The notes under the pieces were generated by a model. That model saw only the letters and a program-made list of their open reading frames with translations. It made no database searches and was not told the origin of the DNA. Shown here in pieces: positions 2,066 to 13,733 of a stretch of 64,000 bases of DNA. The stretch is taken from assembly GCA_021818955.1 (NCBI GenBank), contig JAKASR010000002.1, positions 9,169 to 73,168 of the forward strand, written 5' to 3'. The position numbers and the translations under genes were made by a program. This DNA is from Acidobacteriota bacterium (GTDB lineage: Bacteria > Acidobacteriota > Terriglobia > Terriglobales > SCQP01). How positions within the stretch are numbered: position 1 is the stretch's first letter; every line of letters begins with the position of its first letter.

Positions 2066-3313
2066 TTAGCCGCCCACGCGGACGCGATTGTAGCGGTCCC
2101 AAGCGGACATATCGGACAAAATCACCTTATCTCCGGCGCGCAGGCCGCGCAGCACCTGCACCTTGCCCACCGAGGTCAAGCCGAGATCGACCCGCACCCG
2201 GACAGCGGTGCCGTCGGGCTGCACCCGGAACAAGCTGATGGTGCTGTTGCGGCGGGCTTCCGCCGGCCGCCCCACATAGAGCACATGGTGCAGGCTGGCC
2301 AGGCGGATGGTGCCTTCAACGCTGAGGTCGGGACGGGCGCCCGGGGGCAGCGGCCCATCGAGCGCGATATCGACCTGGACCGAGCCATTTTGCACCGCCG
2401 GATTGATGCGCATCACATGGCCGGGAATCAGGCCATTGTGAGTATCGATTGAAGCCGGCTGGCCGATGGCGACATCGCGCGCCTGGGTTTCGGCAATGTC
2501 AATTTGCGCTTTGAGCTGCTGCGGTTGCGCCACCTTGGCGAGGATGGCGCCGGCGGCGACCCATTGCCCGACCTGCACCGGCAGTTCCTGCAAGACACCC
2601 GTCGCGCCGGCAAAAACGGACAATTGACTGGCCTGAGTCCGCGCCAACCGGTCCAGCGCTTGCAGGGACTGCACCTTGGCCGCCTGCGCCGCCAACTGCG
2701 CCTGTTCGGAGTAACGCGTATTAGCCAACCCCTGCCGGCCGTTGTCCACCTGCTGGCGCAGCGAATCGGCCCGGCTTTGATCCTGCTGGGCATCGAAAGC
2801 GGCAATCAAGCCGCGGGCCAGCAGCTTGTTATCCGATGCGGCCTTGGCTTGCGCCTGCTGGTATTTGGCTTCCAGCTCGGCTTCGGTCGATTCCTGTTGC
2901 AGCAGTTGCGCCTGCAATTGCGCCTGCAGCTGGCGGTAGGTGGCTTGCGCCGCGACCAAATTAAAGCGCGCCGTCGCCGCATTTTGCTGCAACTGCGGGT
3001 TGGCCAACTGCAACAGCAGGGTGTGAGGACCCACCTGCGCGCCGGGCTGCAATAAACGCTTCATTACCCGGCCGTCGCTGGCCGCGGGAATAAAAAGGAT
3101 ATTTTTAGGCACCAGCTTACCCAACCCGCGCACGCGGATCACCAGATCGCCACGATGCACATGGCCCAACCAGGCGCCGGTGACGGTGGGGGGGGCGGGA
3201 CGCAAGCGGGAGACGGCGATGGTGACGCCGGCAATGGCCAACACGGTCAGCGCAGCCAGGAAGATACGGCGGCGGCGGCGTTTACGACTGAGGTCTGGGC
3301 GAGCAATATCCAT
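2066..3313 (-). CDS. Efflux periplasmic adaptor subunit (HlyD/MacA-like)
   Basis: N-terminal TM helix, lipoyl-like halves around a Gln/Ala coiled coil, C-terminal GLRAGDKVILSD. Confidence 0.9.
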   Translation of the reverse strand: MDIARPDLSRKRRRRRIFLAALTVLAIAGVTIAVSRLRPAPPTVTGAWLGHVHRGDLVIRVRGLGKLVPKNILFIPAASDGRVMKRLLQPGAQVGPHTLLLQLANPQLQQNAATARFNLVAAQATYRQLQAQLQAQLLQQESTEAELEAKYQQAQAKAASDNKLLARGLIAAFDAQQDQSRADSLRQQVDNGRQGLANTRYSEQAQLAAQAAKVQSLQALDRLARTQASQLSVFAGATGVLQELPVQVGQWVAAGAILAKVAQPQQLKAQIDIAETQARDVAIGQPASIDTHNGLIPGHVMRINPAVQNGSVQVDIALDGPLPPGARPDLSVEGTIRLASLHHVLYVGRPAEARRNSTISLFRVQPDGTAVRVRVDLGLTSVGKVQVLRGLRAGDKVILSDMSAWDRYNRVRVGG

Positions 3314-3335
3314 AAACGTTCCGACCTATCTTATA

Positions 3336-3352
3336 CGCACGCGGGGGGCCAA
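3336..3352 (-). promoter_or_regulatory. Putative sigma54 (-24/-12) promoter of the efflux operon
   Basis: Minus strand TTGGCCCCCCGCGTGCG gives GG-N10-GC, about 22 nt before the ATG at 3313. Confidence 0.55.
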
Positions 3353-3410
3353 GCGATCCGTGAAATAAAATCAAGTTTATCAGCAATTTAGCTAGATCAG
3401 GCGAGCAGCA

Positions 3411-3451
3411 GGGTGTTCGAATCCGGGACACGGGTGTAGCAAAACGCGACA
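3411..3451. promoter_or_regulatory. Tandem TGT-N11-ACA sites, putative enhancer-binding-protein sites
   Basis: gggTGTtcgaatccgggACA (3414-3430) and gggTGTagcaaaacgcgACA (3435-3451), 21 bp period, upstream of the sigma54-like site with an AT-rich spacer between. Confidence 0.5.
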
Positions 3452-3470
3452 GTTTGAAAATGGGGGGAAG

Positions 3471-3605
3471 GCGGCTCGGCCGCTTTTACTTTTAGGCGCT
3501 GACGCTTTCGCAAGGGTCCGGCCGAAACCGGACGCATTGCGAATACTTATCGCTACCGAAAGTTTATTGTCGTTAATAGACGCGGGACCTAATAGGAACC
3601 CCGCG
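3471..3605 (-). repeat. Intergenic structured repeat, copy 1 (long form)
   Basis: GCGGCTCGGCCGCTTTTACTTTTAGGCGCTGACGCTTTCG...GTCCGGCCGAAACCGGACGC core shared with 4564, 10375 and 12522; distal CGCGGGA...CCCCGCG hairpin shared with copy 3. Confidence 0.95.
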
Positions 3606-3659
3606 TTTCGGCCTGCGATTTCGGACGAAAACTACTGTCCGACTCGGCCGTTAACGCTT

Positions 3660-4511
3660 TTAGCGCAGCCAATCTTCTAAAGCAATGGCCTGGGTGGTTT
3701 TTTCATCGCGATATTTAACGATGACCGGAGTCGCAAGAGACAGTCCCCATTCGGGGCCTTTGCCGCGGACGACGGAGCGCGCGCCGGGGATCACCACGGC
3801 GCCTTCAGGAATTTCCAGCGGCGAATCGGCGGTGGCGCGATAGATGGTTTCCCGCACCAGGTCATAGACCGGAGTAGAGCGGGTCAAGATCACGCCGGCG
3901 CCGAGCACCGCGCCGGCGCCGACGCGGGTGCCTTCGTAAATGCCACAGTTTCCCCCGACCAGCACGTCATCTTCAATGACCACGGGGCGGGCATTGACCG
4001 GTTCCAGGACGCCGCCGACCTGGGCAGCGGCGCTGAGATGGACCCGGCGTCCGATCTGGGCGCAAGAGCCGACCAGGGCATGAGAATCGAGCATGGTGTC
4101 TTCCCCCACCCAGGCGCCGATGTTGACGAAGACCGGCGGCATGACAATGACGCCGGGAGCCAGATAAGCGCCGTCGCGGACACTAGAGCCCCCGGGAACG
4201 ATCCGCACGCGGTCGGTGGGCAGCCAGCGGCGGGTGGGAAGCGAGTCTTTATCGAAAAATTCCAGCGGCCCCGCCTGGCCGGCGGACTGCACCTTGCCCA
4301 GGCGGAAGCCCATCAGGATGCCCTCCTTGACCCAGTCATTCACCCGCCAATTTCCAGAGGCGGCGGGTTCGGCGGCGCGAATCGTGCCGCAGTTGAGCCC
4401 GGCACGCAATTGCTCGAAGGCGGCCCGCGCTTCCGGGCGCACCGAATCGAGATTGACGGCCTGATAGTACAAGTGCAGCCGCTGCGCCAGGGTTAAAGGC
4501 TGGGTGGCCAT
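3660..4511 (-). CDS. dapD: 2,3,4,5-tetrahydropyridine-2,6-dicarboxylate N-succinyltransferase
   Basis: [51 protein letters not shown], hexapeptide repeats. Confidence 0.95.
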
Positions 4512-4563
4512 GAGCGTTCCTCCGCCTCGATGGAATTTTACTGCATCGACCCAGATTCAGAGA

Positions 4564-4664
4564 GCGGCTCGGCCGCTTTTACTTTTAGGCGCTGACGCTT
4601 TCGCCAAGGTCCGGCCGAAACCGGACGCAGGGCAAACACTCATGGATGCCGAAAGTTTATCGTC
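4564..4664 (-). repeat. Intergenic structured repeat, copy 2
   Basis: Near-identical to the copy 4 core; lies between divergent dapD and padR. Confidence 0.95.
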
Positions 4665-4694
4665 ATGCCGGCGCGATAGACCCGCCTCTCGCCC

Positions 4695-4741
4695 CTCCTT
4701 GACAACTTAGGAGAGCCGCACTATCCTAAGCCGCATAGGAG
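4695..4741 (+). promoter_or_regulatory. padR promoter with two overlapping palindromic operators
   Basis: -35 TTGACA 4699-4704, 17 bp, -10 TATCCT 4722-4727; inverted repeats CTCCT-N9-AGGAG (4695-4713) and TCCTA-N7-TAGGA (4724-4740). Confidence 0.65.
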
Positions 4742-4749
4742 AACAGCGA

Positions 4750-5091
4750 ATGAACGACGCGGCTAAAATCCTGCCCGGCACGCTGGACTTGCTGATCTTG
4801 AAAGCGGTATCGCTGGGGCCGCAGCACGGTTACGGCGTGTTGTTGCGTATCCAGCAGATTTCGCGCGGGGCGCTGACGATCGAGCAGGGGGCGCTGTATC
4901 CGGCGCTGTACCGCCTGGAAAAAAACAAAGAGCTGGCGGCGGAGTGGGGCACTTCGGAAAATAACCGCCGCGCGCGGTTTTACCGGCTGACGGCCGCGGG
5001 ACGCCGGCGGCTGGAACACGAGGAAGACAGTTGGCGGCGGCTGGCGGCGGCGATGGGCGCGGCCTTGAAGGCGCGTCCGGAAGAAGTCTGA
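4750..5091 (+). CDS. PadR-family transcriptional regulator (acidobacterial type)
   Basis: GTLDLLILK, HGYG, GALYPALYRLE, WGTSENNRRARFYRLT. Confidence 0.95.
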   Translation: MNDAAKILPGTLDLLILKAVSLGPQHGYGVLLRIQQISRGALTIEQGALYPALYRLEKNKELAAEWGTSENNRRARFYRLTAAGRRRLEHEEDSWRRLAAAMGAALKARPEEV

Positions 5092-5104
5092 GGAGTACGC
5101 AACC

Positions 5105-7702
5105 ATGTGGGGCAAGCGGAGGCGGAAGGAAGGGGAGATTGCCGAGGAACTGGCCGGTCACCTGGAGCGCCGGCAGGCGGACCTGATGGCGGCGGGACTC
5201 GACGCGGAAGCGGCGCGACGGCAGGCGCGGCTGGAATTCGGCTCAACCGACAACTACCGCGAGGAGGCGCGCGCGGCGCTAGGCTGGGCGCGATGGGATG
5301 CGCTGCGGCAGGACCTGCGCGACGCGCTGCGGCAGATGCGCCGCGCGCCGGGTCTGGCGGCCACGGTGGTGCTGACTTTGGCACTGGCGATGGGCGCCAA
5401 TACGGCGCTGTTCAGCATGCTCGACGCGGTGCTGCTGCGGCCGCTGAATTATCCGCATCCGGAACGGATTTTAATTGAAAACAACAGCCTCTCCTATCCA
5501 ATCTTCAAGCAATTCCAGGCGCGGCTTACATCCTTGGAATCGATTGCGGCTCAAAGCGGATATTCCTTCACGCTTTTAGGACAAGGCGCGCCGGCGCGAA
5601 TTTGGGCGACCCAAACCACGCCAGGATATTTCAAGGTATTTGACACCGCGCCCATTCTCGGCCAGGTATTCACGCGCGCCGAACTCGATCGCGGCGATCG
5701 GAATGTGGCCGTGCTCGATTATCAGTTCTGGCGGCAGAAGTTGAACGGCCGGCGGAACGTGATTGGCAAAAGCTTAAATTTGGACGGCAAATTATTCCGG
5801 ATCCTAGGCGTCATGCCACCGGGTTTCAACCTTTCCCGCAGTGTTCAGTTTCGTGCCGCAGTCTGGGTGCCATTGCAATTAAAACCGGCACAACGAACCA
5901 ATAATTTTGCTTCCTTATTCATTTTGGGCCGGCTCAAACCGGGCTTCACTCGGCGTCAATTCCAATCCCAACTCAGCGCCATCTGGAAGTCCAAAGGATT
6001 TCCAGCAAAAAATTATCTGCCCCCGAACCTTCAATGGAGAACCTATCGCTCTTCGCTGGTCGGCAACTATCATCAGCCGCTCTGGCTGCTGATCAGCGCC
6101 AGCGGATTACTCCTGCTGCTGGCCTGCCTGAACATCGCCGGCCTGCTGCTGGCGCGCAATGCCGGGCGCCGGGCGGAAATCGCGATGCGGGCGGTGCTGG
6201 GCGCCAGCCGGCGACGGATTCTGCGGCAACTGCTGGCGGAAAGCGCATTGTCAGGAATTGCCGGAGGTGGCTTAGGGCTGCTCTTGGGCGCCTGGATGCT
6301 TGCCGGGCTGCGCGCCGCCGCCGTGGCCGCCGGGCTGCCGCGCATGCAGCATGTCACGATTTCCGGCATCAGCCTGGCATTTAGCGGTGGGCTGCTAATT
6401 TTGACCGTACTGATATTTGGCCTGCTGCCGGCTTGGGAAGCCTCACGGGTGAATCTCAATCATGCCGCCAACCAGGCCCGCCGCGGCACGCCATCCCGTT
6501 CCAGCCGGAGAATCCTCGAAACCTTGGTCGTCGGCGAGTTGGCGTTTGCCGTGGCGCTCGCCTTCGGCGCCAGCCTGCTGCTGCGCAGCTATGCCCAATT
6601 GACCTCGCTGCCGCTGGGCTTCAACCCCCACCACCTTTTAATGTTCTCGACCGATATGCCACCTGGCCCGGCACAAGAGTCAAACCATGATCGCCAGCGG
6701 CGGGCTGAGCTTTTCATTCAGCAAGCATTGCATCGGCTTCGGGTATTGCCCGGGATTCAATCGGCGGGTTTTATCGGGATGCCGCCGTTTTATGGACTAA
6801 TGATGCTCGAAGTACAGCGGCGAAACTCTCCCCATTATTTTGACACGCTCGAAAATGTGACCAGTCCAGGATTGCTGCGAACTTTGGGAGTGCCGCTTCT
6901 TCAAGGACGCGATTTCACCGCGGCTGATAACTCACACGCGCCCAAGGTCGCGCTTGTCAGCCAAGCGCTGGCGGAAGAACTATGGCCGCATCAATACCCC
7001 ATCGGCCGCGTATTTTTAATTGGCGGAAAAAAGAAAACCGCTTATCGCGTCATCGGCGAAACGGGCAATGCCATGCAGTATGGCCCCTTTGGGTCGAGAG
7101 CCGAAGGCATCAACATGCTTGCCCAGCCCACAATCTATTTGCCTTATACCCAAGCGAATATTCCGATGTACACCTTTATAGCGCGCACCACGATGCCGCC
7201 GCTGAGCCTGGCGCCGGAGATACGGCGGATCTTCAACCAAATCAACCCCACCGAGCCGGTGAACGATATGCAAAGCTTCCAGCAACTATTCGCTTCCCTG
7301 CTCGCCAGTCGCCGTCTGTATCTCGATCTGCTTTCGGCGATGGCCGGCCTGGCGCTGCTTTTGGTGATGGCCGGGGTCTTTGGCGTGTCGCGTTTCATGG
7401 CCGCCGCCCGCACCGGCGAAATCGGCATTCGCAAAGCGCTGGGCGCGGAAAATGCGGCGGTGCTGCGGCTGCTGCTGCGGCGAACCGCGATTTTAGCCTT
7501 GAGCGGCGCAACTCTGGGCGCGGGCCTGGGCTTATTGCTGGCGCGGCTGCTGACCCGCCTGCTCTATGGCGTCACGCCCACGGACGCGGCGACTTTGATC
7601 GCGGTGGCGGCGCTGGCGATGGCAACGGCGTTGATAGCGGCCTGGCTGCCGGCGCGACGCGCGGCGCGGCTCGATCCGCTCGCGGTGCTGCGCTACGAAT
7701 GA
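5105..7702 (+). CDS. ADOP-type duplicated ABC permease (MacB periplasmic + FtsX, twice)
   Basis: Permease-prefix N-terminus (EELAGHLE...RLEFG), LALAMGANTALFS, EIGIRKALGA, ends PARRAARLDPLAVLRYE; follows padR. Confidence 0.92.
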   Translation: MWGKRRRKEGEIAEELAGHLERRQADLMAAGLDAEAARRQARLEFGSTDNYREEARAALGWARWDALRQDLRDALRQMRRAPGLAATVVLTLALAMGANTALFSMLDAVLLRPLNYPHPERILIENNSLSYPIFKQFQARLTSLESIAAQSGYSFTLLGQGAPARIWATQTTPGYFKVFDTAPILGQVFTRAELDRGDRNVAVLDYQFWRQKLNGRRNVIGKSLNLDGKLFRILGVMPPGFNLSRSVQFRAAVWVPLQLKPAQRTNNFASLFILGRLKPGFTRRQFQSQLSAIWKSKGFPAKNYLPPNLQWRTYRSSLVGNYHQPLWLLISASGLLLLLACLNIAGLLLARNAGRRAEIAMRAVLGASRRRILRQLLAESALSGIAGGGLGLLLGAWMLAGLRAAAVAAGLPRMQHVTISGISLAFSGGLLILTVLIFGLLPAWEASRVNLNHAANQARRGTPSRSSRRILETLVVGELAFAVALAFGASLLLRSYAQLTSLPLGFNPHHLLMFSTDMPPGPAQESNHDRQRRAELFIQQALHRLRVLPGIQSAGFIGMPPFYGLMMLEVQRRNSPHYFDTLENVTSPGLLRTLGVPLLQGRDFTAADNSHAPKVALVSQALAEELWPHQYPIGRVFLIGGKKKTAYRVIGETGNAMQYGPFGSRAEGINMLAQPTIYLPYTQANIPMYTFIARTTMPPLSLAPEIRRIFNQINPTEPVNDMQSFQQLFASLLASRRLYLDLLSAMAGLALLLVMAGVFGVSRFMAAARTGEIGIRKALGAENAAVLRLLLRRTAILALSGATLGAGLGLLLARLLTRLLYGVTPTDAATLIAVAALAMATALIAAWLPARRAARLDPLAVLRYE

Positions 7703-7711
7703 AAGCAGGCG

Positions 7712-7762
7712 CTAGCAGCATAAACGGGCGCGGCCTTGAAAGCGCGTCCGGAAGAAGTCTGA
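7712..7762 (+). pseudogene. Remnant of the padR 3' end carried by a tandem duplication
   Basis: 7726-7762 matches padR 5055-5091 at 36/37 nt (GAALKARPEEV*); decayed L-A-A-stop codons upstream. Confidence 0.85.
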
Positions 7763-7774
7763 GGAGGATGCACC

Positions 7775-10372
7775 ATGCGGGGCAAGCGGCGGCGGCGGGA
7801 AGCGGAGATCACGGAAGAACTGGCCGGGCACTTGGAGCGCCGGCAGGCGGACCTGATGGCGGCGGGACTCGACGCGGAAGCGGCGCGGCGGCAGGCGCGG
7901 CTGGAATTCGGCTCAACCGACAACTACCGCGAGGAGGCGCGCGCGGCGCTAGGCTGGGCGCGCTGGGATAATTTCCGGCAGGACCTGCGCGACGCGCTGC
8001 GGCAGATGCGCCGCGCGCCGGGGCTGGCGATTGCCGTGGTGCTGACCCTGGCGCTGGCGATGGGCGCCAACACGGCGCTGTTCAGCATGCTCTACGCGGT
8101 GCTGCTGCGGCCGCTGAATTATCGCCACCCGAACCGGATTGTCATTCTGCAAGCTCAACTTACCTATCCGGAATTGCGCGCGCTGCAGACCCGGCTCACC
8201 GCCTTTCAAACCCTGGCCGCCCAAAGATGGGCCGATGAATTCACCTTGTTGGACCAGGGGGCGCCGCGAAGAATATCCGCCCTGGCGGTTACCCCGGAAT
8301 TTTTCCAGGTCTTGAGCGCCGCCCCGATTTCCGGCCAGGTTTTTACCCGCGCCGAGTACGATCGCGGCGACCGGAACGTGATTGTGCTCGCATACAGCTT
8401 TTGGCAGCGCATCTTCGCCGGCCGGAGCGAGGTGCTGGGACGAAATCTCAATCTGGACGGCAAGCTGTTTCGCATCCAAGGCATCATGCCGCGCGGATAT
8501 GCGAACCTCAACCGTTCCCAGGACGCCAGTTTTGCCGGTTGGATTCCGCTGCAACTGACGCCGGCGCAGCGAATCGCCCACAATTTTGACCTGTTTTTAC
8601 TGGGACGGCTCAAGCCCGGCAGAAAACTCCGCCAGGCGAATCTTCAAACCCGAACCATCGGGAATCAACCCGAGTTTCGCCAACCCATATCGAAACCGAT
8701 GCAATGGGTCCGCTATCGCGCCGCCATCACGAAAAAATATGACCAGCCGATCTGGCTGCTGAATGCCGCCGCCGGGCTGATGCTGCTGCTGGCCTGCCTG
8801 AATATCGCCGGACTGCTGCTGGCCCGCAATGCCGGGCGGCGGACAGAGATCGCCATGCGAGCGGTGCTGGGCGCCAGCCGCGGGCGGATTCTGCGGCAAC
8901 TGCTGGCGGAAAGCGGGCTGCTGGGCATTGCCGGCTGCGGCCTGGGAATGCTCGCAGGCGCCTGGATGTTTGCCGGGCTGCGCGCCGCGGCGGTGGCCGC
9001 CGGCCTGCCGCGGATGCAGCATGCCGGCATCGCCGGCGCCAGTCTCGCGTTGAGCGCCGCGCTGCTGGTTTTGGCCATACTTTTATTCGGCCTGTTGCCG
9101 GCCTGGGAAGCCTCGCGGGTGAACTTAAACAGCGCCGCCAACCAGACCCGCCGCGGCACGCCATCCCGTTCCAGCCGGAGAATCCTTGAAACTTTAGTCA
9201 TTGGCGAACTGGCGTTTGCCGTAGCGCTGGCCTTCGGCGCCGGCCTGCTGCTGCGCAGCTACGCCCAATTGACCTCCCTGCCGCTGGGCTTCAACCCGCA
9301 TCATCTGCTGATGTTTTCCACCGAACTTCCATCCCCGGCGGCCCAGCCATCAACCCCCGCCAGCCGGCAGCGGTCCGATCTTTTCATTCAGCAAGCTTTG
9401 CAAAGACTGCAAGCCCTGCCCGGAGTGCGATCGGCGGGCTTTGTCGAATTATCGCCGTTTAATGGACTGATCTACATGAATATACAGCGGCGGAATGATC
9501 CTCATTTGTTTCACACGCTGGTGAATGTAGCCGGTCCCCACTTCATGCGAACTCTGGGCGTGCCCATCCTGCGCGGGCGGAATTTCCGCGCGGACGACGG
9601 CTTCAACTCGCCCAAAGTCGCCCTGGTCAACCGGGCACTGGCGGAAGAGCTATGGCCGCATCAAAATCCCATCGGCCAGGAATTAATCTTCGGAGGAAGC
9701 CGGCCCACCGCTTATCGCGTCATCGGCGAAGCGGGCAATTTCATGCAGTATGGTCCCTTTTGGATGAGAGCCAAAGGCATGAAGGTACTGGCCCAGGCCA
9801 CCGTTTATTTTCCTTATACGCAAGCTCATCCTCAAATGTATTCATTTTTGGTGCGCACCCGCGTGCCGCCAGCGAGCCTGGAGGCGGAGGTACGGCGGAT
9901 TTTCAGCCAGATCAATCCCACCGAGCCGTTGACCAACTTTCAAACGTTCCAGCAGCGGTTCACGGCGTTGCTTGTCCGCCGCCGCCTCTATCTCGACCTG
10001 CTGGCCGCGATGGCGGGGCTGGCGCTGATACTGGTGCTGGCCGGCGTTTATGGAGTGGCCAACTTCATGGCCGGAGCGCGCACGGGCGAAATCGGCATCC
10101 GCAAAGCGCTGGGCGCGGAAAATGCCGCGGTGCTGCGTTTATTACTGTGGCGAACCGCGGTTTTGTCGTTGATCGGCGCGGCTCTGGGCGCGGGCCTGGG
10201 CTTGATGCTGGCGCGGCTGCTGACCAGCCTGTTATACGGCGTGCAAGCTAGCGATCCGGCCACGCTGGCCGGGGTAGCGGCCTTCGCGCTGGCCACGGCG
10301 GTGGCGGGCGCCTGGGTGCCGGCGCGGCGGGCGGCGCGGCTCGATCCGCTCGCGATGCTGCGCTACGAATGA
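7775..10372 (+). CDS. ADOP-type duplicated ABC permease, paralog of 5105-7702
   Basis: Same length (865 aa) and architecture; near-identical N-terminus and TM segments. Confidence 0.92.
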   Translation: MRGKRRRREAEITEELAGHLERRQADLMAAGLDAEAARRQARLEFGSTDNYREEARAALGWARWDNFRQDLRDALRQMRRAPGLAIAVVLTLALAMGANTALFSMLYAVLLRPLNYRHPNRIVILQAQLTYPELRALQTRLTAFQTLAAQRWADEFTLLDQGAPRRISALAVTPEFFQVLSAAPISGQVFTRAEYDRGDRNVIVLAYSFWQRIFAGRSEVLGRNLNLDGKLFRIQGIMPRGYANLNRSQDASFAGWIPLQLTPAQRIAHNFDLFLLGRLKPGRKLRQANLQTRTIGNQPEFRQPISKPMQWVRYRAAITKKYDQPIWLLNAAAGLMLLLACLNIAGLLLARNAGRRTEIAMRAVLGASRGRILRQLLAESGLLGIAGCGLGMLAGAWMFAGLRAAAVAAGLPRMQHAGIAGASLALSAALLVLAILLFGLLPAWEASRVNLNSAANQTRRGTPSRSSRRILETLVIGELAFAVALAFGAGLLLRSYAQLTSLPLGFNPHHLLMFSTELPSPAAQPSTPASRQRSDLFIQQALQRLQALPGVRSAGFVELSPFNGLIYMNIQRRNDPHLFHTLVNVAGPHFMRTLGVPILRGRNFRADDGFNSPKVALVNRALAEELWPHQNPIGQELIFGGSRPTAYRVIGEAGNFMQYGPFWMRAKGMKVLAQATVYFPYTQAHPQMYSFLVRTRVPPASLEAEVRRIFSQINPTEPLTNFQTFQQRFTALLVRRRLYLDLLAAMAGLALILVLAGVYGVANFMAGARTGEIGIRKALGAENAAVLRLLLWRTAVLSLIGAALGAGLGLMLARLLTSLLYGVQASDPATLAGVAAFALATAVAGAWVPARRAARLDPLAMLRYE

Positions 10373-10374
10373 AA

Positions 10375-10571
10375 GCGGCTCGGCCACTTTTACTTTTAGG
10401 CGCTGACGCTTTCGCAAACGTCCGGCCGAAGCCGGACGCTTGGCGAAAACTCATGGTTGCCAGGCATTGCCGGGCGCAATTCCCGCGGAATTGCCGGCAT
10501 GCTTGATGCAATTCCTGCGGAATTGCTTTGGATTGTCGTTCCCAGGCGCGGGATCTAACAGGAACCCCGCG
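10375..10571 (-). repeat. Intergenic structured repeat, copy 3 (long form with internal palindromes)
   Basis: Core as in other copies; internal GCAATTCC-NGC-GGAATTGC twice (10476-10494, 10508-10526); distal hairpin shared with copy 1. Confidence 0.92.
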
Positions 10572-10603
10572 CGCCCGATCAAAGCCCGCCCGGCGGTCGC
10601 TGA

Positions 10604-11416
10604 TTAAAAAGCGTAATGGAAGCCGGCGGCGATGATGGGATACCACTTGAAGATTTTGACGTCATTTTCCAAACGGGTCTGTTCGGCCTGCACATTGGCC
10701 TGAACGGAGGGATTGGAGGTGCTCTGGCAGTTGGCGCCATTGGGGTCGCAGACGTCGCCTTGAAGCGCCAGGGCCACCTGCGGAGTTCCCTGATAAGCCG
10801 CGCCGATTTCGAAACTGATGCCGAAATGTTTATTGCGCGGCACCAGATTGCCGATGCCCACAGTGATCATGGGCGCGACCTTGTGGCTGGTGTTGAGCAG
10901 CAAGTTTCCGCTCACCGGATTGGCGGTCGAGCTGGTATAGGTCGTTCCGCCCAGGGTAAATTGGTCGCCGCCGGGGACGGCAGCGTTTCCCGTAATCTTG
11001 TTGCCGTCATAAAGCAGCACGCCGGGGCTGAGATGCAACGGCCCCCAGAAAAACCAGTCGGCATGCGCCTCGACCGAACGCAGGGAAAGATGGCCGGTAT
11101 AGCCGATGCCGTCTTTATTGAGGTTATGGCTTAAAGAAAAATCGTTAAAGCCGACGCGAAAATTCAGTTTAGGCAAGACGCGCGCGGCAAACTGCACTCC
11201 GGGGCCCAGCGTCGAGGCCTGAATGCCGATGCCAAAGCGGTGGCTGGATGAATAGGCAGCCGGCAACGCGGGGGGCGCGGCGGCTTGACCATTCACGGAG
11301 CCGGCAGCGTAAGCGGGGTTGGCAGGCGGCGTCTGCGCCGCCAGTCCCAAGCCGAACAGCAGTGCGGCCAAACACGAAGCCACCCATCCCAAGCCATGCG
11401 AAAAAGCCTGGCGCAT
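10604..11416 (-). CDS. Hypothetical outer-membrane beta-barrel protein
   Basis: Signal peptide from ATG 11416 (SD GAGGGA), amphipathic beta strands, C-terminal GFHYAF ending in Phe. Confidence 0.7.
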   Translation of the reverse strand: MRQAFSHGLGWVASCLAALLFGLGLAAQTPPANPAYAAGSVNGQAAAPPALPAAYSSSHRFGIGIQASTLGPGVQFAARVLPKLNFRVGFNDFSLSHNLNKDGIGYTGHLSLRSVEAHADWFFWGPLHLSPGVLLYDGNKITGNAAVPGGDQFTLGGTTYTSSTANPVSGNLLLNTSHKVAPMITVGIGNLVPRNKHFGISFEIGAAYQGTPQVALALQGDVCDPNGANCQSTSNPSVQANVQAEQTRLENDVKIFKWYPIIAAGFHYAF

Positions 11417-11600
11417 AATTTTTCCCTCAATCCTTGTGGAAATAGCGTGCGTGGGCAAGCACGGAATTGCCCGCCCGAAGTCACATTGTGACTGATCCGA
11501 CACACATAAGTCTATCTACCAAGGGAAATAGATATTTAGAACACGGATACCATACTGCAAGGATGCCCCCCGCCGCTTCCGGCCATGCCCGTCTGGAGTT

Positions 11601-12509
11601 TTAGATCAGGCCGGCTTTTTCCAAGGCTTTTTCCAACTGGCGGCGCGAGGCCTCGGCGAGCGGTTCGAGCGGCAGGCGGTAAACTTCCTGGCACAAGCCC
11701 ATGCGCGCCAGCGCGGCCTTGACCGGAATCGGGTTGGATTCGATGAAGTTCGCCTGCATCAGGTCCAGATACTTGAAGTGGAGTTCGCGGGCGGCGGCGA
11801 AGTCGCCTTGCAGGCCATGCCGCACCAGATCGGCCATGGCGCGGGGAATTTCGTTGGAGGCCACGCTGATCAAGCCATGACCGCCCAGGGCCAGCAGCGG
11901 CAAGGTCAGGGCATCATCGCCCGAGAGCACGCGGAAGCCGGGCAAAGCGGCCAGGATCTCGGCCATTTGCAAAATGTTGCCGCTGGCCTCTTTCACCCCG
12001 ACCACGCCGGGAATGCGCGCCAGCAGCGCCAGGGTGGCGGGAGTAATGTTGCTGCCGGTGCGTCCGGGCACGTTATAAACCACCAGCGGCAGCGGCACCG
12101 CCTGGGTAATGGCGGTGTAATGCGCCACCAGGCCGGCGGGATTGGGCTTGTTGTAATAGGGCGAGACCGAAAGGAGGCCATCGGCGCCGGCTTCGGCCAG
12201 GCGGTGGGCCAGATCGATCACGTGCGCGGTGTGGTTGCCGCCGGCGCCGGCCAGCACGGCAACCCGGCGCGGGGCGCGGCGGGCCTCCTCCACCGTAATC
12301 GCCACCACGCGCGCGTGTTCGGCGACGGATAAGGTCGGGGTTTCGCCGGTCGTGCCTCCCGGGACGAGAAAATCAATGCCTTCCTGTATCTGAAAGCGCA
12401 CCAGCAGGCGCAAGGCATTTTCATCGAGGGCGCGATCGGCGGTGAAAGGGGTAATCAGGGCGGTGCCGCAACCGCGCAGCCAAGCGGGAGGGGGGGTGCT
12501 CATAGCCAT
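11601..12509 (-). CDS. dapA: 4-hydroxy-tetrahydrodipicolinate synthase
   Basis: GCGTALITPF, GTTGE, SPYYNKP, YNVPGRTG, GVKEASG, ESNPIPVK; start may be ATG 12503. Confidence 0.95.
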   Translation of the reverse strand: MAMSTPPPAWLRGCGTALITPFTADRALDENALRLLVRFQIQEGIDFLVPGGTTGETPTLSVAEHARVVAITVEEARRAPRRVAVLAGAGGNHTAHVIDLAHRLAEAGADGLLSVSPYYNKPNPAGLVAHYTAITQAVPLPLVVYNVPGRTGSNITPATLALLARIPGVVGVKEASGNILQMAEILAALPGFRVLSGDDALTLPLLALGGHGLISVASNEIPRAMADLVRHGLQGDFAAARELHFKYLDLMQANFIESNPIPVKAALARMGLCQEVYRLPLEPLAEASRRQLEKALEKAGLI

Positions 12510-12521
12510 TTCATTATAGGT

Positions 12522-12617
12522 GCGGCTCGGCCGCTTTTACTTTTAGGCGCTGACGCTTTCGCCAAGGTCCGGCCGAAACCGGACGCAGGGCGAATACTCA
12601 TGGATACCGAAAGTTTA
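12522..12617 (-). repeat. Intergenic structured repeat, copy 4
   Basis: Near-identical to copy 2; immediately upstream of dapA. Confidence 0.95.
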
Positions 12618-12696
12618 AAATGGCGCGACAATATTTCGGCACTCGCATGGGACCTCCGGCCGCATTTCCGGACAATTGCCAATTCGGAACCGGCAA

Positions 12697-12708
12697 ATTG
12701 TATACAAT
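12697..12708. promoter_or_regulatory. Perfect palindrome ATTGTATACAAT, probable GntR-family (HypR-like) operator
   Basis: 12 bp perfect palindrome 44 nt upstream of the hydroxyproline operon; TTGT-NN-ACAA is typical of GntR-family operators. Confidence 0.65.
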
Positions 12709-12752
12709 GTTGAGTTCAAAAAATATTACCCGCTCACGAGCGCGCCACCACT

Positions 12753-13733
12753 ATGCCGGAAAAAGCTGATAACCCGCCTGCCGCACTGCCCGGCCGGGCT
12801 TCCAGAATCCACGTCGTCGATTCGCATACTGCCGGCGAGCCGACGCGGGTAGTGATTGCCGGCGGGCCGGAGTTGGGGAATGGCTCGATGGCCGAGCGGC
12901 TGGATCGGTTCCGGCGCGAGCATGACCGTTTTCGTTCCGCCGTGGTCAACGAGCCGCGCGGCTCCGACGCCCTGGTGGGGGCGCTACTATGCGCGCCCTG
13001 CGACCCCACCTGCGCCGCGGGCGTAATTTTTTTTAATAATGTCGGCTATCTCGGCATGTGCGGGCACGGCACCATCGGCTTGATGGCGACGCTGGAATGG
13101 CTGGGGCGCTTAACGCCCGGCAAGCACCGCATCGAGACCCCGGTAGGCGAAGTCACGGCGGAACTGCATGGCGGGGGCACGGTCACGGTCAGCAATGTTC
13201 CGAGTTATCGCTTTCGCCAGGGTGTAGAGGTCGAAGCGCCCGGCGTGGGGCGGGTGCGGGGCGATATCGCCTGGGGGGGCAACTGGTTTTTCCTGGTCGA
13301 AGGCCACGGGCAAAAGCTGGATTATCGAAGCCTGGATGCGCTGACCGAATACGCCTGGCAAATACGGCAAGGGCTGGAACATGCCGGGATTCGCGGGGCG
13401 AACGGAGCGGAGATCGACCACATCGAGCTGGTGGGGGCGGCGCACAACGGAGGGCCTGCGCGAAATTTTGTGCTTTGTCCGGGCAAAGCCTACGACCGCT
13501 CCCCCTGCGGCACCGGCACCAGCGCCAAGCTGGCCTGCCTGCACGCCGACGGCAAATTGCAGCCGGGCGAAACCTGGCGGCAGGAAGGCATTTTGGGCAC
13601 CTCGTTCGAAGGCCGCATCACGCTGCACGATGGGAAAATCGAGCCGCACATCACCGGCAGCGCCTATGTGACCGGAGAAGCCGAACTGGTGCTGGACGAA
13701 CGCGATCCCTTCTGTTGGGGCATCCGTGCCTAA
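12753..13733 (+). CDS. lhpA: 4-hydroxyproline 2-epimerase (proline racemase family)
   Basis: [10 protein letters not shown]; catalytic Cys pair in MCGHGTIG and [11 protein letters not shown]; operon context. Confidence 0.92.

Follow-up and report, generated by a model that had tools for sequence, protein, structure and literature searches.

A lineage-restricted family of small hairpin-bearing repeats, probably non-autonomous mobile DNA, in an acidobacterial genome

Element copies at the locus and across the genome

The window, the whole 64,000-nt stretch of DNA analysed here, contains four direct copies of one repeat family close to genes of unrelated functions (an RND adaptor, dapD, padR and ADOP permeases, a porin-like gene, dapA and a hydroxyproline epimerase). 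A repeat finder placed all four on the + strand, at 3471-3566, 4564-4659, 10375-10470 and 12522-12617, with 83-100% identity to the reference copy, and a profile search of the entire window recovered no fifth copy; the two methods thus agree with the original prediction on number and orientation within the window, and the hairpins it described are present in our folds. The four starts also held. The outlines of ~95-200 bp were replaced by unit boundaries drawn from alignments of 50 and 132 copies, which resolve copy 1 as a 189-nt unit, copies 2 and 4 as short forms and copy 3 as a composite (Table 1).

Table 1 Features of the four element copies, in window coordinates
Feature	Position	Strand	Description
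Copy 1	3471-3659	+	Full-length 189-nt unit; nhmmer profile positions 1-187, E 1.3e-63
Copy 1, hairpin H1 (left end)	3471-3483	+	GCGGC-TCG-GCCGC
Copy 1, T-rich tract	3484-3493	+	
Copy 1, hairpin H2	3507-3543	+	Two-tier hairpin (fold)
Copy 1, hairpin H3	3580-3606	+	Fold
Copy 1, hairpin H4	3621-3642	+	Fold
Copy 1, right end	3643-3659	+	Terminates ...CTCGGCCGTTAACGCTT
Copy 2	4564-4667	+	Short form, profile positions 1-104; left end and H2, no right end
Copy 3, left module	10375-10461	+	Profile positions 1-87
Insertion inside copy 3	10462-10531	+	~70 nt; a different small hairpin module (GCAATTCCnGCGGAATTGC), present twice
Copy 3, middle module (H3)	10532-10572	+	Profile positions 96-136; nhmmer E 3.7e-05; a repeat-finder family of its own
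Copy 4	12522-12627	+	Short form, profile positions 1-114

The right end of copy 1 is followed immediately by the dapD stop codon (3660-3662), and copy 2 lies between the start of dapD, on the minus strand, and the padR gene on the plus strand. Copy 3 begins 3 nt past the stop of the second ADOP permease gene and carries the C-G closed variant of the H2 tetraloop (genome-wide, the loop-closing pair reads C-G in 79 cases versus C.A in 252). The hairpin module inserted into it recurs throughout the genome within or beside many element copies, and no canonical right end follows its middle module. Copy 4 is placed 13 nt upstream of the start of dapA, which runs on the opposite strand, and its left-end hairpin and T-run score as terminator-like on the + strand.

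The element had been described as four-copy, with a genome-wide BLAST proposed as a check. A blastn search with the four copies returned 1796 HSPs that merged into 456 loci of the 3.80-Mb genome, and nhmmer returned 513 hits that chained into ~441 loci, 134 of them contiguous and full-length; element DNA amounts to 57,180 bp, or ~1.5% of the genome. The full unit of ~189 nt is modular, consisting of a left end (with H1 at unit positions 1-13), H2, a middle module with H3, H4 (which stops 17 nt short of the right terminus) and a right end. Its termini are fixed (5'-GCGGCnCGGCCGCTTTT... and ...CTCGGCCGTTAACGCTT-3') and both are retained in miniature forms with internal deletions and in insertion variants. 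A fuzzy motif search located 395 left ends and 340 right ends, with 218 paired within 400 nt and ~177 left-only and ~122 right-only orphans. Copies are ~94% identical to their consensus, many are decayed, truncated or nested, and their spacing is irregular, with none on 8 of the 47 contigs.

Orientation, insertion sites and hairpin conservation

Neighbouring loci were co-oriented in 356 cases and opposed in 46 (89%, p 2e-60), and even neighbours more than 5 kb apart were co-oriented in 113 cases versus 27. Co-orientation extends over tens to hundreds of kb, with 38 same-orientation runs spanning 2.0 Mb. Furthermore, element orientation follows an asymmetry between strands in third-codon-position composition. 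Between genes running with the element and genes running against it, the half-difference was +0.037 for GC3 skew (p 1e-16) and +0.083 for AT3 skew (p 2e-57), with the sign agreeing in 21 of 23 blocks for AT3 and 16 of 23 for GC3. No bias relative to the blocks was seen for gene strand (593 same, 608 opposite) or tRNA strand (12 versus 12). The element + direction is opposed by the rRNA operon, by rpoB and by atpD (the last assigned by local skew and its nearest block) and shared by dnaA and gyrB, and one and the same strand shows both G>C and A>T; in this assembly of 47 contigs with origin and terminus unmapped, the markers conflict over which strand leads.

The flanks of 132 full copies revealed no target-site duplication above control level. 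A flank match of at least 4 nt was lacking in 110 of these copies, 4- and 5-nt matches numbered 15 and 5 (versus 8.9 and 1.95 in the shuffled control) and longer matches were confined to two outliers of 12 and 14 nt. Nor was a fixed 4-5-nt target found adjoining the 395 left ends, where A is weakly preferred (45% at -2, 39% at -1); the one strong signal in the flanks lies on the other side, where 90% of 340 right ends have a G at the fourth base beyond the terminus. In one case a copy is nested within another, with TTAA of the host copy directly on one side and TAGG directly on the other. The element is mostly intergenic, regardless of the direction of neighbouring genes: among 387 copies with a left end, crude gene calls placed 309 between genes, divided over the four flank configurations as 69/94/82/64, whereas 56 shared over 20 nt with a called gene and contig edges accounted for 22.

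In an alignment of 14 sequences from four genomes, pairing was retained in 89.3% of cells and two-sided changes were found in 17 cells belonging to 6 pairs, for a score of 0.120. Neither this count nor this score was equalled in any of 500 shuffles, and no slid control scored above 0.049. H1 is invariant, whereas H3 and H4 keep their pairing through double changes between genera. Within the studied genome, stems are conserved only, their positions mutating less than loops. The sequence comparison thus supports selection on structure at the single-strand level, as originally predicted, by way of H3 and H4 and not through the evidence drawn from the window. A compensatory swap claimed for copy 1 dissolved in the 513 aligned hits, in which the pair reads AG 163, AT 89, CG 43 and CT 14 times, so that its two sides vary almost independently. 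Likewise, the reported asymmetry, by which variants form G-U pairs on the minus strand and C-A mismatches on the plus strand, is inconsistent across helices and runs in the same direction as the mutation bias of unpaired positions (G>A 6.3%, C>T 3.7%). The unpaired T-rich tract, described as invariant, is nearly so only within this genome; the sister species and another genus have different versions of it. Between-genera compensation in H3 and H4 cannot separate RNA from single-stranded DNA.

Relatives and the search for a mobilising enzyme

The syntenic region of a sister species (G001) is without copies 1 and 4; relative to it, copy 4 is an insertion, with its left junction immediately after ...TATAGGT. 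Matches number 19 in G001 and 11 in genome G005 versus hundreds in the studied genome, a ~20-fold difference in copy number between two species of one genus, and most genera of the acidobacterial family examined hold no copies. A related variant in another genus (G004) yielded 241 candidates, of which 40 were scored; on its 11 contigs with at least two copies, 29 copies share the majority orientation and 4 run against it. The left-end hairpin and T-run form the most conserved part across the four genomes.

Profile searches of the assembly, which is 96.3% complete, so that the absence of an enzyme gene is not proven, gave no match to PF01797 (Y1 HUH), PF07282 (TnpB), PF01548 (IS110), PF00239 (serine recombinase) or PF04986 (IS91), the control for the last of these likewise matching nowhere. 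The assembly also contains no multi-copy IS-sized repeat and none of the HUH/RAYT or IS200/IS605 transposases flanked by the same hairpin that the original prediction had suggested seeking. No protein was common to the 22 intervals (34 proteins) between left and right ends lying 0.7-5 kb apart, or to the copy flanks in relatives. Element ends were absent from the vicinity of the single RAYT-like gene of G001, of which the studied genome has no homologue (tblastn E at least 5.4), and from that of the Y1 genes of G001 and G004. The sole reverse transcriptase found is an RT-Cas1 fusion adjoining CRISPR-type genes. The genes between inverted neighbouring copies appear housekeeping-like, as judged by reading.

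Origin of the family and comparison with known systems

We consider it reasonably probable that the four copies represent a new family, restricted to this lineage, of small mobile DNA elements that are non-autonomous and inserted single-stranded at replication forks. The original prediction had offered three options, and its non-autonomous (REP/PATE-like) element fits the hundreds of dispersed copies, defined ends, deletion derivatives and empty orthologous sites. Its ncRNA and cis-regulatory RNA fit poorly with unrelated neighbour genes, all four flank configurations and the lack of an Rfam match, and we conclude that the element is not an RNA gene or riboswitch. If the orientation blocks correspond to replication strands, they would point to strand-specific insertion at replication forks. 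The hairpins would then be recognised in single-stranded DNA during insertion, by a route as in IS200/IS605 elements and their gene-less derivatives, and the enzyme may have been lost, left unassembled or be of an unrecognised kind. A burst of copies probably followed the split from the sister species, the copies being ~94% identical to their consensus. Each copy's terminator-like hairpin and T-run could affect neighbouring transcripts. A bolder form of this proposal, which we regard as rather unlikely, is that the mover is a new enzyme (an unrecognised transposase) or the host replication or repair machinery acting on the single-strand terminal hairpin; this would constitute a new replication-coupled class of mobile DNA, in which hairpin and T-run might double as a host polar signal.

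The extreme co-orientation (356 versus 46, and seen in two genera) could also be expected of a polar chromosome element recruited by the host and kept for strand-specific use, with spread secondary; examples would be hairpin sites on one replication strand, polar segregation or repair signals, or protective terminators. The strong conservation of the terminator-like left end across four genomes, the compensatory changes that preserve hairpins and the failure to find a transposase agree with such a role. The ~20-fold copy difference within the genus and the absence from most genera of the family are unlike a needed signal, however, and the many decayed, truncated and nested copies, irregular spacing and empty contigs speak against it as well; we judge this explanation unlikely. 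Little credence is given to a cut-and-paste MITE, the deletion derivative of a DDE-type IS, recognised by terminal inverted repeats that are imperfect (GCGnnnCGGCCG at each end). The ends can indeed be read as such repeats, pairing in the fold of either strand, and both are kept in internal-deletion derivatives, but DDE transposition of double-stranded DNA does not explain why 89% of neighbours are co-oriented. The flanks also lack a target-site duplication (110 of 132 without a match, the remainder at control level), no multi-copy IS is present in the assembly and genus g5 shows an uncompensated change at the left-end position expected to pair with the right end.

A structured RNA, with a minus-strand transcript serving as an ncRNA or cis-regulatory leader, would account for the position of copies 1, 2 and 4 upstream of minus-strand genes, for the conserved hairpins with some compensatory change and for the UUCG-type tetraloop of H2 on the minus strand. 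It is very improbable given ~441 loci in every orientation to neighbouring genes of unrelated function, the position of copy 3 between two convergent genes, copies that are insertions relative to the sister species, and predicted covariation that was not upheld, its wobble asymmetry tracking mutation bias. Moreover, nothing in the window reached an Rfam gathering score. Acido-1 and Acido-Lenti-1, from the same phylum as the host and named in the original prediction, were absent from 3200-13000 even at E up to 10, where three sub-threshold hits were obtained; the best over a copy was BcKCsr2 (17.9 bits versus a threshold of 40). The excess of left over right ends (395 versus 340) and the many left-end-only forms of varied length would suit a SINE-like element whose RNA, ending in the left-end hairpin, was copied into DNA. 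We find this scarcely credible, as right-only orphans are nearly as common (~122 versus ~177), the only reverse transcriptase is the RT-Cas1 fusion beside CRISPR-type genes and variable-length target duplications are absent except in 2 of 132 copies.

Among known systems, the favoured non-autonomous, single-strand element resembles the gene-less IS200/IS605 derivatives (palindrome-associated transposable elements), which are short, bear hairpins at or near both ends, make no target duplication and depend for their movement on a Y1 HUH transposase that acts on single-stranded DNA; IS200 itself has a terminator-like hairpin at its left end, as is the case here. The strong orientation bias tied to strand asymmetry is a further likeness, a bias relative to replication being documented for IS200 and IS200/IS605, and also for IS607, IS91, IS110 and ISL3 (PMC3971601). 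The family departs from IS200/IS605 in several respects: neither a Y1 nor a TnpB gene was detected in the assembly, nor was a full-length partner sharing its ends; the sequence adjoining the left end contains no fixed tetra- or pentanucleotide target; the left hairpin occupies the terminus itself rather than a subterminal position; and the unit is built as a mosaic from several hairpin modules. REP, BIME and REPIN sequences share the hundreds of intergenic hairpin-forming copies, module mosaics, lineage specificity and ~1% share of the genome. REPs are 20-40 nt and typically inverted doublets, in contrast to the ~190-nt co-oriented units described here, and the REP/RAYT pairing has no counterpart, with no RAYT gene found and a sister-species RAYT-like gene that lacks flanking element ends. 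The hairpins of Acidobacteria class 3 Y1 proteins are reported to have a 'CnGA' foot (PMC6006769).

Bacterial MITEs, among them Correia, ERIC, RUP and Nezha, are similarly 100-200 nt, non-coding, numerous, foldable and able to alter neighbouring transcription. Those families differ in their clear terminal inverted repeats and duplicated targets and are not known to show replication-strand polarity, whereas the present family shows no duplication and strong polarity. Integron attC sites are likewise imperfect hairpins used as single strands in one orientation, with a semi-variable short 3' core (here C-TT-NNN-G); the family differs in that its copies are scattered, on nearly all contigs, and do not form a cassette array, and its ends, by inspection, are not readable as an R''/R' core pair (RYYYAAC ... 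GTTRRRY).

Repeat families numbering hundreds of copies are commonplace in bacteria; near-uniform chromosomal orientation is known mainly from transposons that move as single strands and encode or require a Y1 HUH enzyme. Here polarity, hairpin ends and absence of duplication are present, yet the five enzyme families of IS200/IS605, IS607, IS91 and IS110, the known IS types in which orientation bias goes together with a lack of target duplication, were not found. This behaviour recurs in a second genus, and the family therefore provides a concrete system in which to seek a new mobilising activity. Small 'covarying' intergenic motifs from one window may be mobile DNA, a caution for similar predictions. 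The family could also mark replication direction and inversions in draft genomes of this uncultured acidobacterial family.

Anatomy and copy number of the repeat

The element represents a new repeat family that is restricted to its lineage, non-autonomous, modular and rich in hairpins; it is present in about 440 copies after an expansion in this species, and its nature as a family of mobile repeats is near certain. The four copies on which the original prediction was built were recovered by a repeat finder as one direct family, all on the plus strand (83–100% identity over 96 nt), the hairpins described there are readable in their sequence, and a profile search of the 64-kb window returned these copies and a second piece of copy 3 only, in agreement with the claim that the element occurs nowhere else in this stretch. 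As a count for the genome, four was far too low: blastn with the four copies against the source assembly (G000; 3.80 Mb, 47 contigs, 62% G+C), in which the window occupies C28:9169-73168, gave 1796 HSPs, merging to 456 loci.

Alignment of 50 long copies revealed a sharply bounded unit that starts with GCGGCnCGGCCGC and ends with ...CCGACTCGGCCGTTAACGC, followed by TT. Genome-wide, a 187-position profile produced 513 matches (286 plus, 227 minus) chaining to 441 loci, 134 of which are contiguous full-length units and ~99 a short form ending near position 80–90; window copies 2 and 4 resemble the short form but extend to profile positions 104 and 114, respectively. The remaining loci are truncations, units with inserted extra hairpin modules (for example, copy 3) and mini-elements made of the two ends only. 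By fuzzy motif search, left ends number 395 and right ends 340, with 218 pairing within 400 nt. Element matches cover 57,180 bp (1.5% of the genome), and full copies show a median identity of 93.6% to the consensus and 89.6% among each other. Predicted folds of the two strands are clearly more stable than those of shuffled controls (z −3.5 and −4.8).

Coordinates and description of the repeat copies, their hairpins and associated features (window positions unless a contig is named)
Feature	Position	Strand	Description
Copy 1	3471-3659	+	
Copy 2	4564-4667	+	
Copy 3	10375-10572	+	
Copy 3, left module	10375-10461		
Copy 3, inserted modules	10462-10531		example of other small hairpin modules, GCAATTCCnGCGGAATTGC and GGCAATTTCTTCGAAATTGCC, also abundant genome-wide
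Copy 3, middle module	10532-10572		second piece in profile search
Copy 4	12522-12627	+	
H1			terminal hairpin of the unit, GCGGC-nnn-GCCGC, then T-rich tract
H2			two-tier hairpin already seen in the original prediction
H3			middle hairpin of the unit
H4			hairpin set back 17 nt from the right end
padR-permease block	4750-10372		padR gene plus a tandem pair of genes for 865-aa ADOP permeases, ~7 kb between copies 2 and 3
TATAAT-like box	12485-12534	-	upstream of dapA, conserved in the sister species
End joint	3470-3661		right end to left end; many such joints, here and at other left ends, in DNA runs X1-X3
L014	G000:C28:104801-105406		698-aa reverse transcriptase-Cas1 fusion, outside the window; sole RVT_1 match in the source genome; adjoins a 369-aa gene, family unassigned
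L048	G001:C40:1061-1819	-	252-aa RAYT-like Y1 gene of the sister species, adjoining a primase-like gene

A left end is present in 387 copies, of which 56 share >20 nt with crude gene calls and 22 lie at contig edges; the other 309 are intergenic, between divergent (69), tandem (94 and 82) or convergent (64) genes, a spread that is roughly what the intergenic space offers. Genes next to the window copies (RND adaptor, dapD, an acidobacterial-type padR, two ADOP permeases, a porin-like gene, dapA and hydroxyproline epimerase) are functionally unrelated; two of the families, ADOP and padR, are indicative of Acidobacteriota. The two tandem permease genes lie 2670 nt apart and share 74–91% identity in parts.

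Hairpin conservation

Stems are nearly uniform within the source genome; their few variants are one-sided mismatches, and they mutate less than the loops. The compensatory swap originally proposed from copy 1 dissolved in the larger sample, where the pair reads AG 163, AT 89, CG 43 and CT 14 and thus shows no covariation. A second argument had been that variants form G-U wobbles on the minus strand and C-A mismatches on the plus strand. Minus-strand wobbles are more frequent in the inner part of H2 and in H4 and are not so in H1, the outer part of H2 or helix H5; because unpaired positions carry the same excess (G>A 6.3% versus C>T 3.7%), this asymmetry reflects mutation bias and subfamily structure and is no proof of strand.

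Across genera the hairpins gain genuine support. In an alignment that draws 14 sequences from four genomes, pairing holds in 89.3% of cells, and 17 cells in six pairs are changed on both sides; neither the cross-genus score (0.120) nor the observed number of cells was reached in any of 500 shuffles, and slid controls stayed at or below 0.049. Compensatory pairs fall in H4 (GC 7, CG 4, AU 2, UG 1; a second pair CG 8, UA 5) and H3 (CG 7, UA 2), with H1, H2 and H5 invariant or merely mismatched. In a second alignment, of left modules, one H2 pair reads by eye as T-A in the source genome and C-G in one related genus (g5). On a small tree, these between-genera changes trace back to a few independent events. 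Selection of structure at the single-strand level, as originally claimed, draws its support from the H3 and H4 changes between genera and not from the variants first cited for it; these changes show that folding of a single strand into the hairpins matters, DNA and RNA being indistinguishable in this respect. Two further candidates were rejected: a conserved helix pairing the left with the right end is unsupported across genera, and genus g5 does not conserve H1b, a small hairpin that follows the T-tract.

Insertion sites, relatives and candidate enzymes

No target-site duplication accompanies insertion: 110 of 132 full copies lack any flank match, matches of 4–5 nt occur at the shuffled rate, and two copies carry duplications of 12 and 14 nt. 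In one nested case, the host copy is interrupted precisely between its TTAA and TAGG. The left flank shows a weak preference for A at −2 and −1; beyond the right-end ...GCTT, three variable bases are followed by G in 90% of 340 ends, as in most copies of the sister species and genus g5, and this G is either part of the element or a preferred target. Among the sequencing runs listed as containing the window wholly or partly, there are five DNA runs from two studies and no RNA run. Metagenome contigs from four DNA runs break at every copy, so that empty-site alleles are unreadable there, and depth over element bins is ~5800 versus ~25 beside them. Right-to-left end joints are almost missing from the source assembly (one at 5 nt, four at 33–37 nt); those in the metagenome contigs might represent circular forms or tandem arrays that escaped assembly.

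Flanking genes in the sister species are syntenic with the window at 76–81% identity, and the comparison exposes differences: copy 1 is absent there, leaving an 18-nt stretch resembling fused ends, copy 4 is absent with an exact left junction, and the padR-permease block has no counterpart. In the source genome the left end of copy 4 takes the place of the would-be −35 box of dapA, and its insertion may thus have changed this promoter. With 40 relatives searched by BLAST, matches were confined to the sister species (19), two genomes of genus g5 (11 and 1) and genus g4, which carries a variant of its own; none occurred in the remaining 36. When 150 more genomes, covering 13 other families of the class, were searched with a left-module covariance model, no match emerged among the 31 candidates scored per genome. 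Rfam, proposed as a check in the original prediction, yielded no family at gathering score, and a search at E up to 10 added only sub-threshold hits. A 23-nt left-end word (half-hairpin plus T-tract) is absent from a viral-contig collection and has at least one exact locus in a genome-contig collection (L015), a terminator-like site that follows a gene in a MAG labelled as a beta-proteobacterium; of its four loci in metagenome contigs, three are short contigs with a left module from a relative and the fourth (L059) is the same terminator-like site. This may be chance, or the left end may derive from an intrinsic terminator.

Insertion-sequence families that are orientation-biased and also lack target duplication include IS200/IS605, IS607, IS91 and IS110. 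Profiles for the enzymes of these families (PF01797, PF07282, PF00239, PF04986 and PF01548) had no match in the whole source genome, which is 96.3% complete, and an HUH or IS200/IS605 transposase, raised as a possible partner in the original prediction, was accordingly not found; the blank for IS91 (PF04986) is weak, since the IS91 control had no match in any control genome. Searches centered on the copies were equally negative. Left and right ends 0.7–5 kb apart delimit 22 intervals with 34 proteins, no two alike; by inspection, none of the 21 proteins listed between inverted neighboring copies is transposase-like; and ORFs beside copies in relatives match only through the element itself or from overlapping loci (L016/L024). 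The source genome holds no multi-copy repeat of IS size, its large repeats being prophage-like genes only. Y1 genes are widespread in the order, with 25 of 41 genomes positive (one unpublished genome is included in the tally); they are absent from the source genome and genus g5, and no element ends lie near the RAYT-like gene of the sister species or two Y1 loci in genus g4. The sister-species gene (L048) has no counterpart in the source genome, and the few multi-copy genes of the latter are relatives of its primase-like neighbor. A class of Y1 proteins with atypical hairpins is described in Acidobacteria (PMC6006769); none was detectable in the source genome.

Orientation polarity and mode of spread

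Copies are co-oriented within contigs (for example, 31/0 on C6, 0/30 on C45 and 0/17 on C22). Adjacent loci share orientation in 356 cases versus 46, neighbors >5 kb apart in 113 versus 27, and right-end orphans point the same way as the closest distant left end in 284 versus 48. Element orientation is independent of gene direction: the fraction of genes co-oriented with copies in ±20-kb windows is 0.50, and within the orientation blocks 593 genes are co-oriented with the element and 608 opposed to it. The same polarity repeats in the g4 variant, where, with 40 of 241 candidates scored, 11 contigs with at least two copies hold 29 in the majority orientation and 4 not.

Comparison of third codon positions between co-oriented and opposite genes, which removes transcription effects, isolated a strand component with a GC skew of +0.037 (p = 1e-16) and an AT skew of +0.083 (p = 2e-57), consistent in sign across 16 and 21 of 23 blocks, respectively; inverted blocks within a contig show inverted skew, and raw GC skew per contig correlates weakly with orientation. 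Since replication is the simplest cause of strand asymmetry at such a scale, we infer from this 47-contig assembly that the blocks are replication strands. No tRNA-strand or gene-strand bias relative to them was found in the source genome. Marker genes and tRNAs give conflicting answers as to which strand leads: excess of G over C at third codon positions, dnaA and gyrB designate the element's plus strand; excess of A over T, the rRNA operon and rpoB designate the opposite one, and atpD sides with the latter group as judged from local skew, because it is placed between oppositely oriented copies. At third codon positions of this genome, G exceeds C and A exceeds T on one and the same strand.

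Several IS families are reported to be biased in orientation with respect to replication (PMC3971601). The most unusual property of the present family is its strand polarity without any recognizable single-strand transposase. The most likely mechanism, in which we have moderate confidence, would be strand-specific insertion of a single-stranded form of the element at replication forks. IS200/IS605-derived elements behave similarly, but neither the fixed target nor the cognate enzyme that defines them was found here, and the family is therefore not filed among them.

Other accounts carry less weight. That polar copies are put to use by the host seems unlikely, and an ordinary MITE, with the flanks and polarity described, is rather improbable. 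A structured RNA would accommodate hairpins that matter in a single strand, but copies occupy all four flank configurations beside unrelated genes and match no Rfam family, making this explanation very improbable; mobilization through a reverse-transcribed copy is scarcely credible. Skew of 8-mers across the orientation blocks is marginal: the observed maximum |z| of 11.1 is only just above the null maximum of 10.2, and the top words, such as AGCGCAGA (170 versus 22), seem to derive from other co-oriented repeats. A GCGCAGA-type heptamer word, of which this is an example, is abundant and strongly co-oriented with the main element, and polarity seems common to several repeat families.
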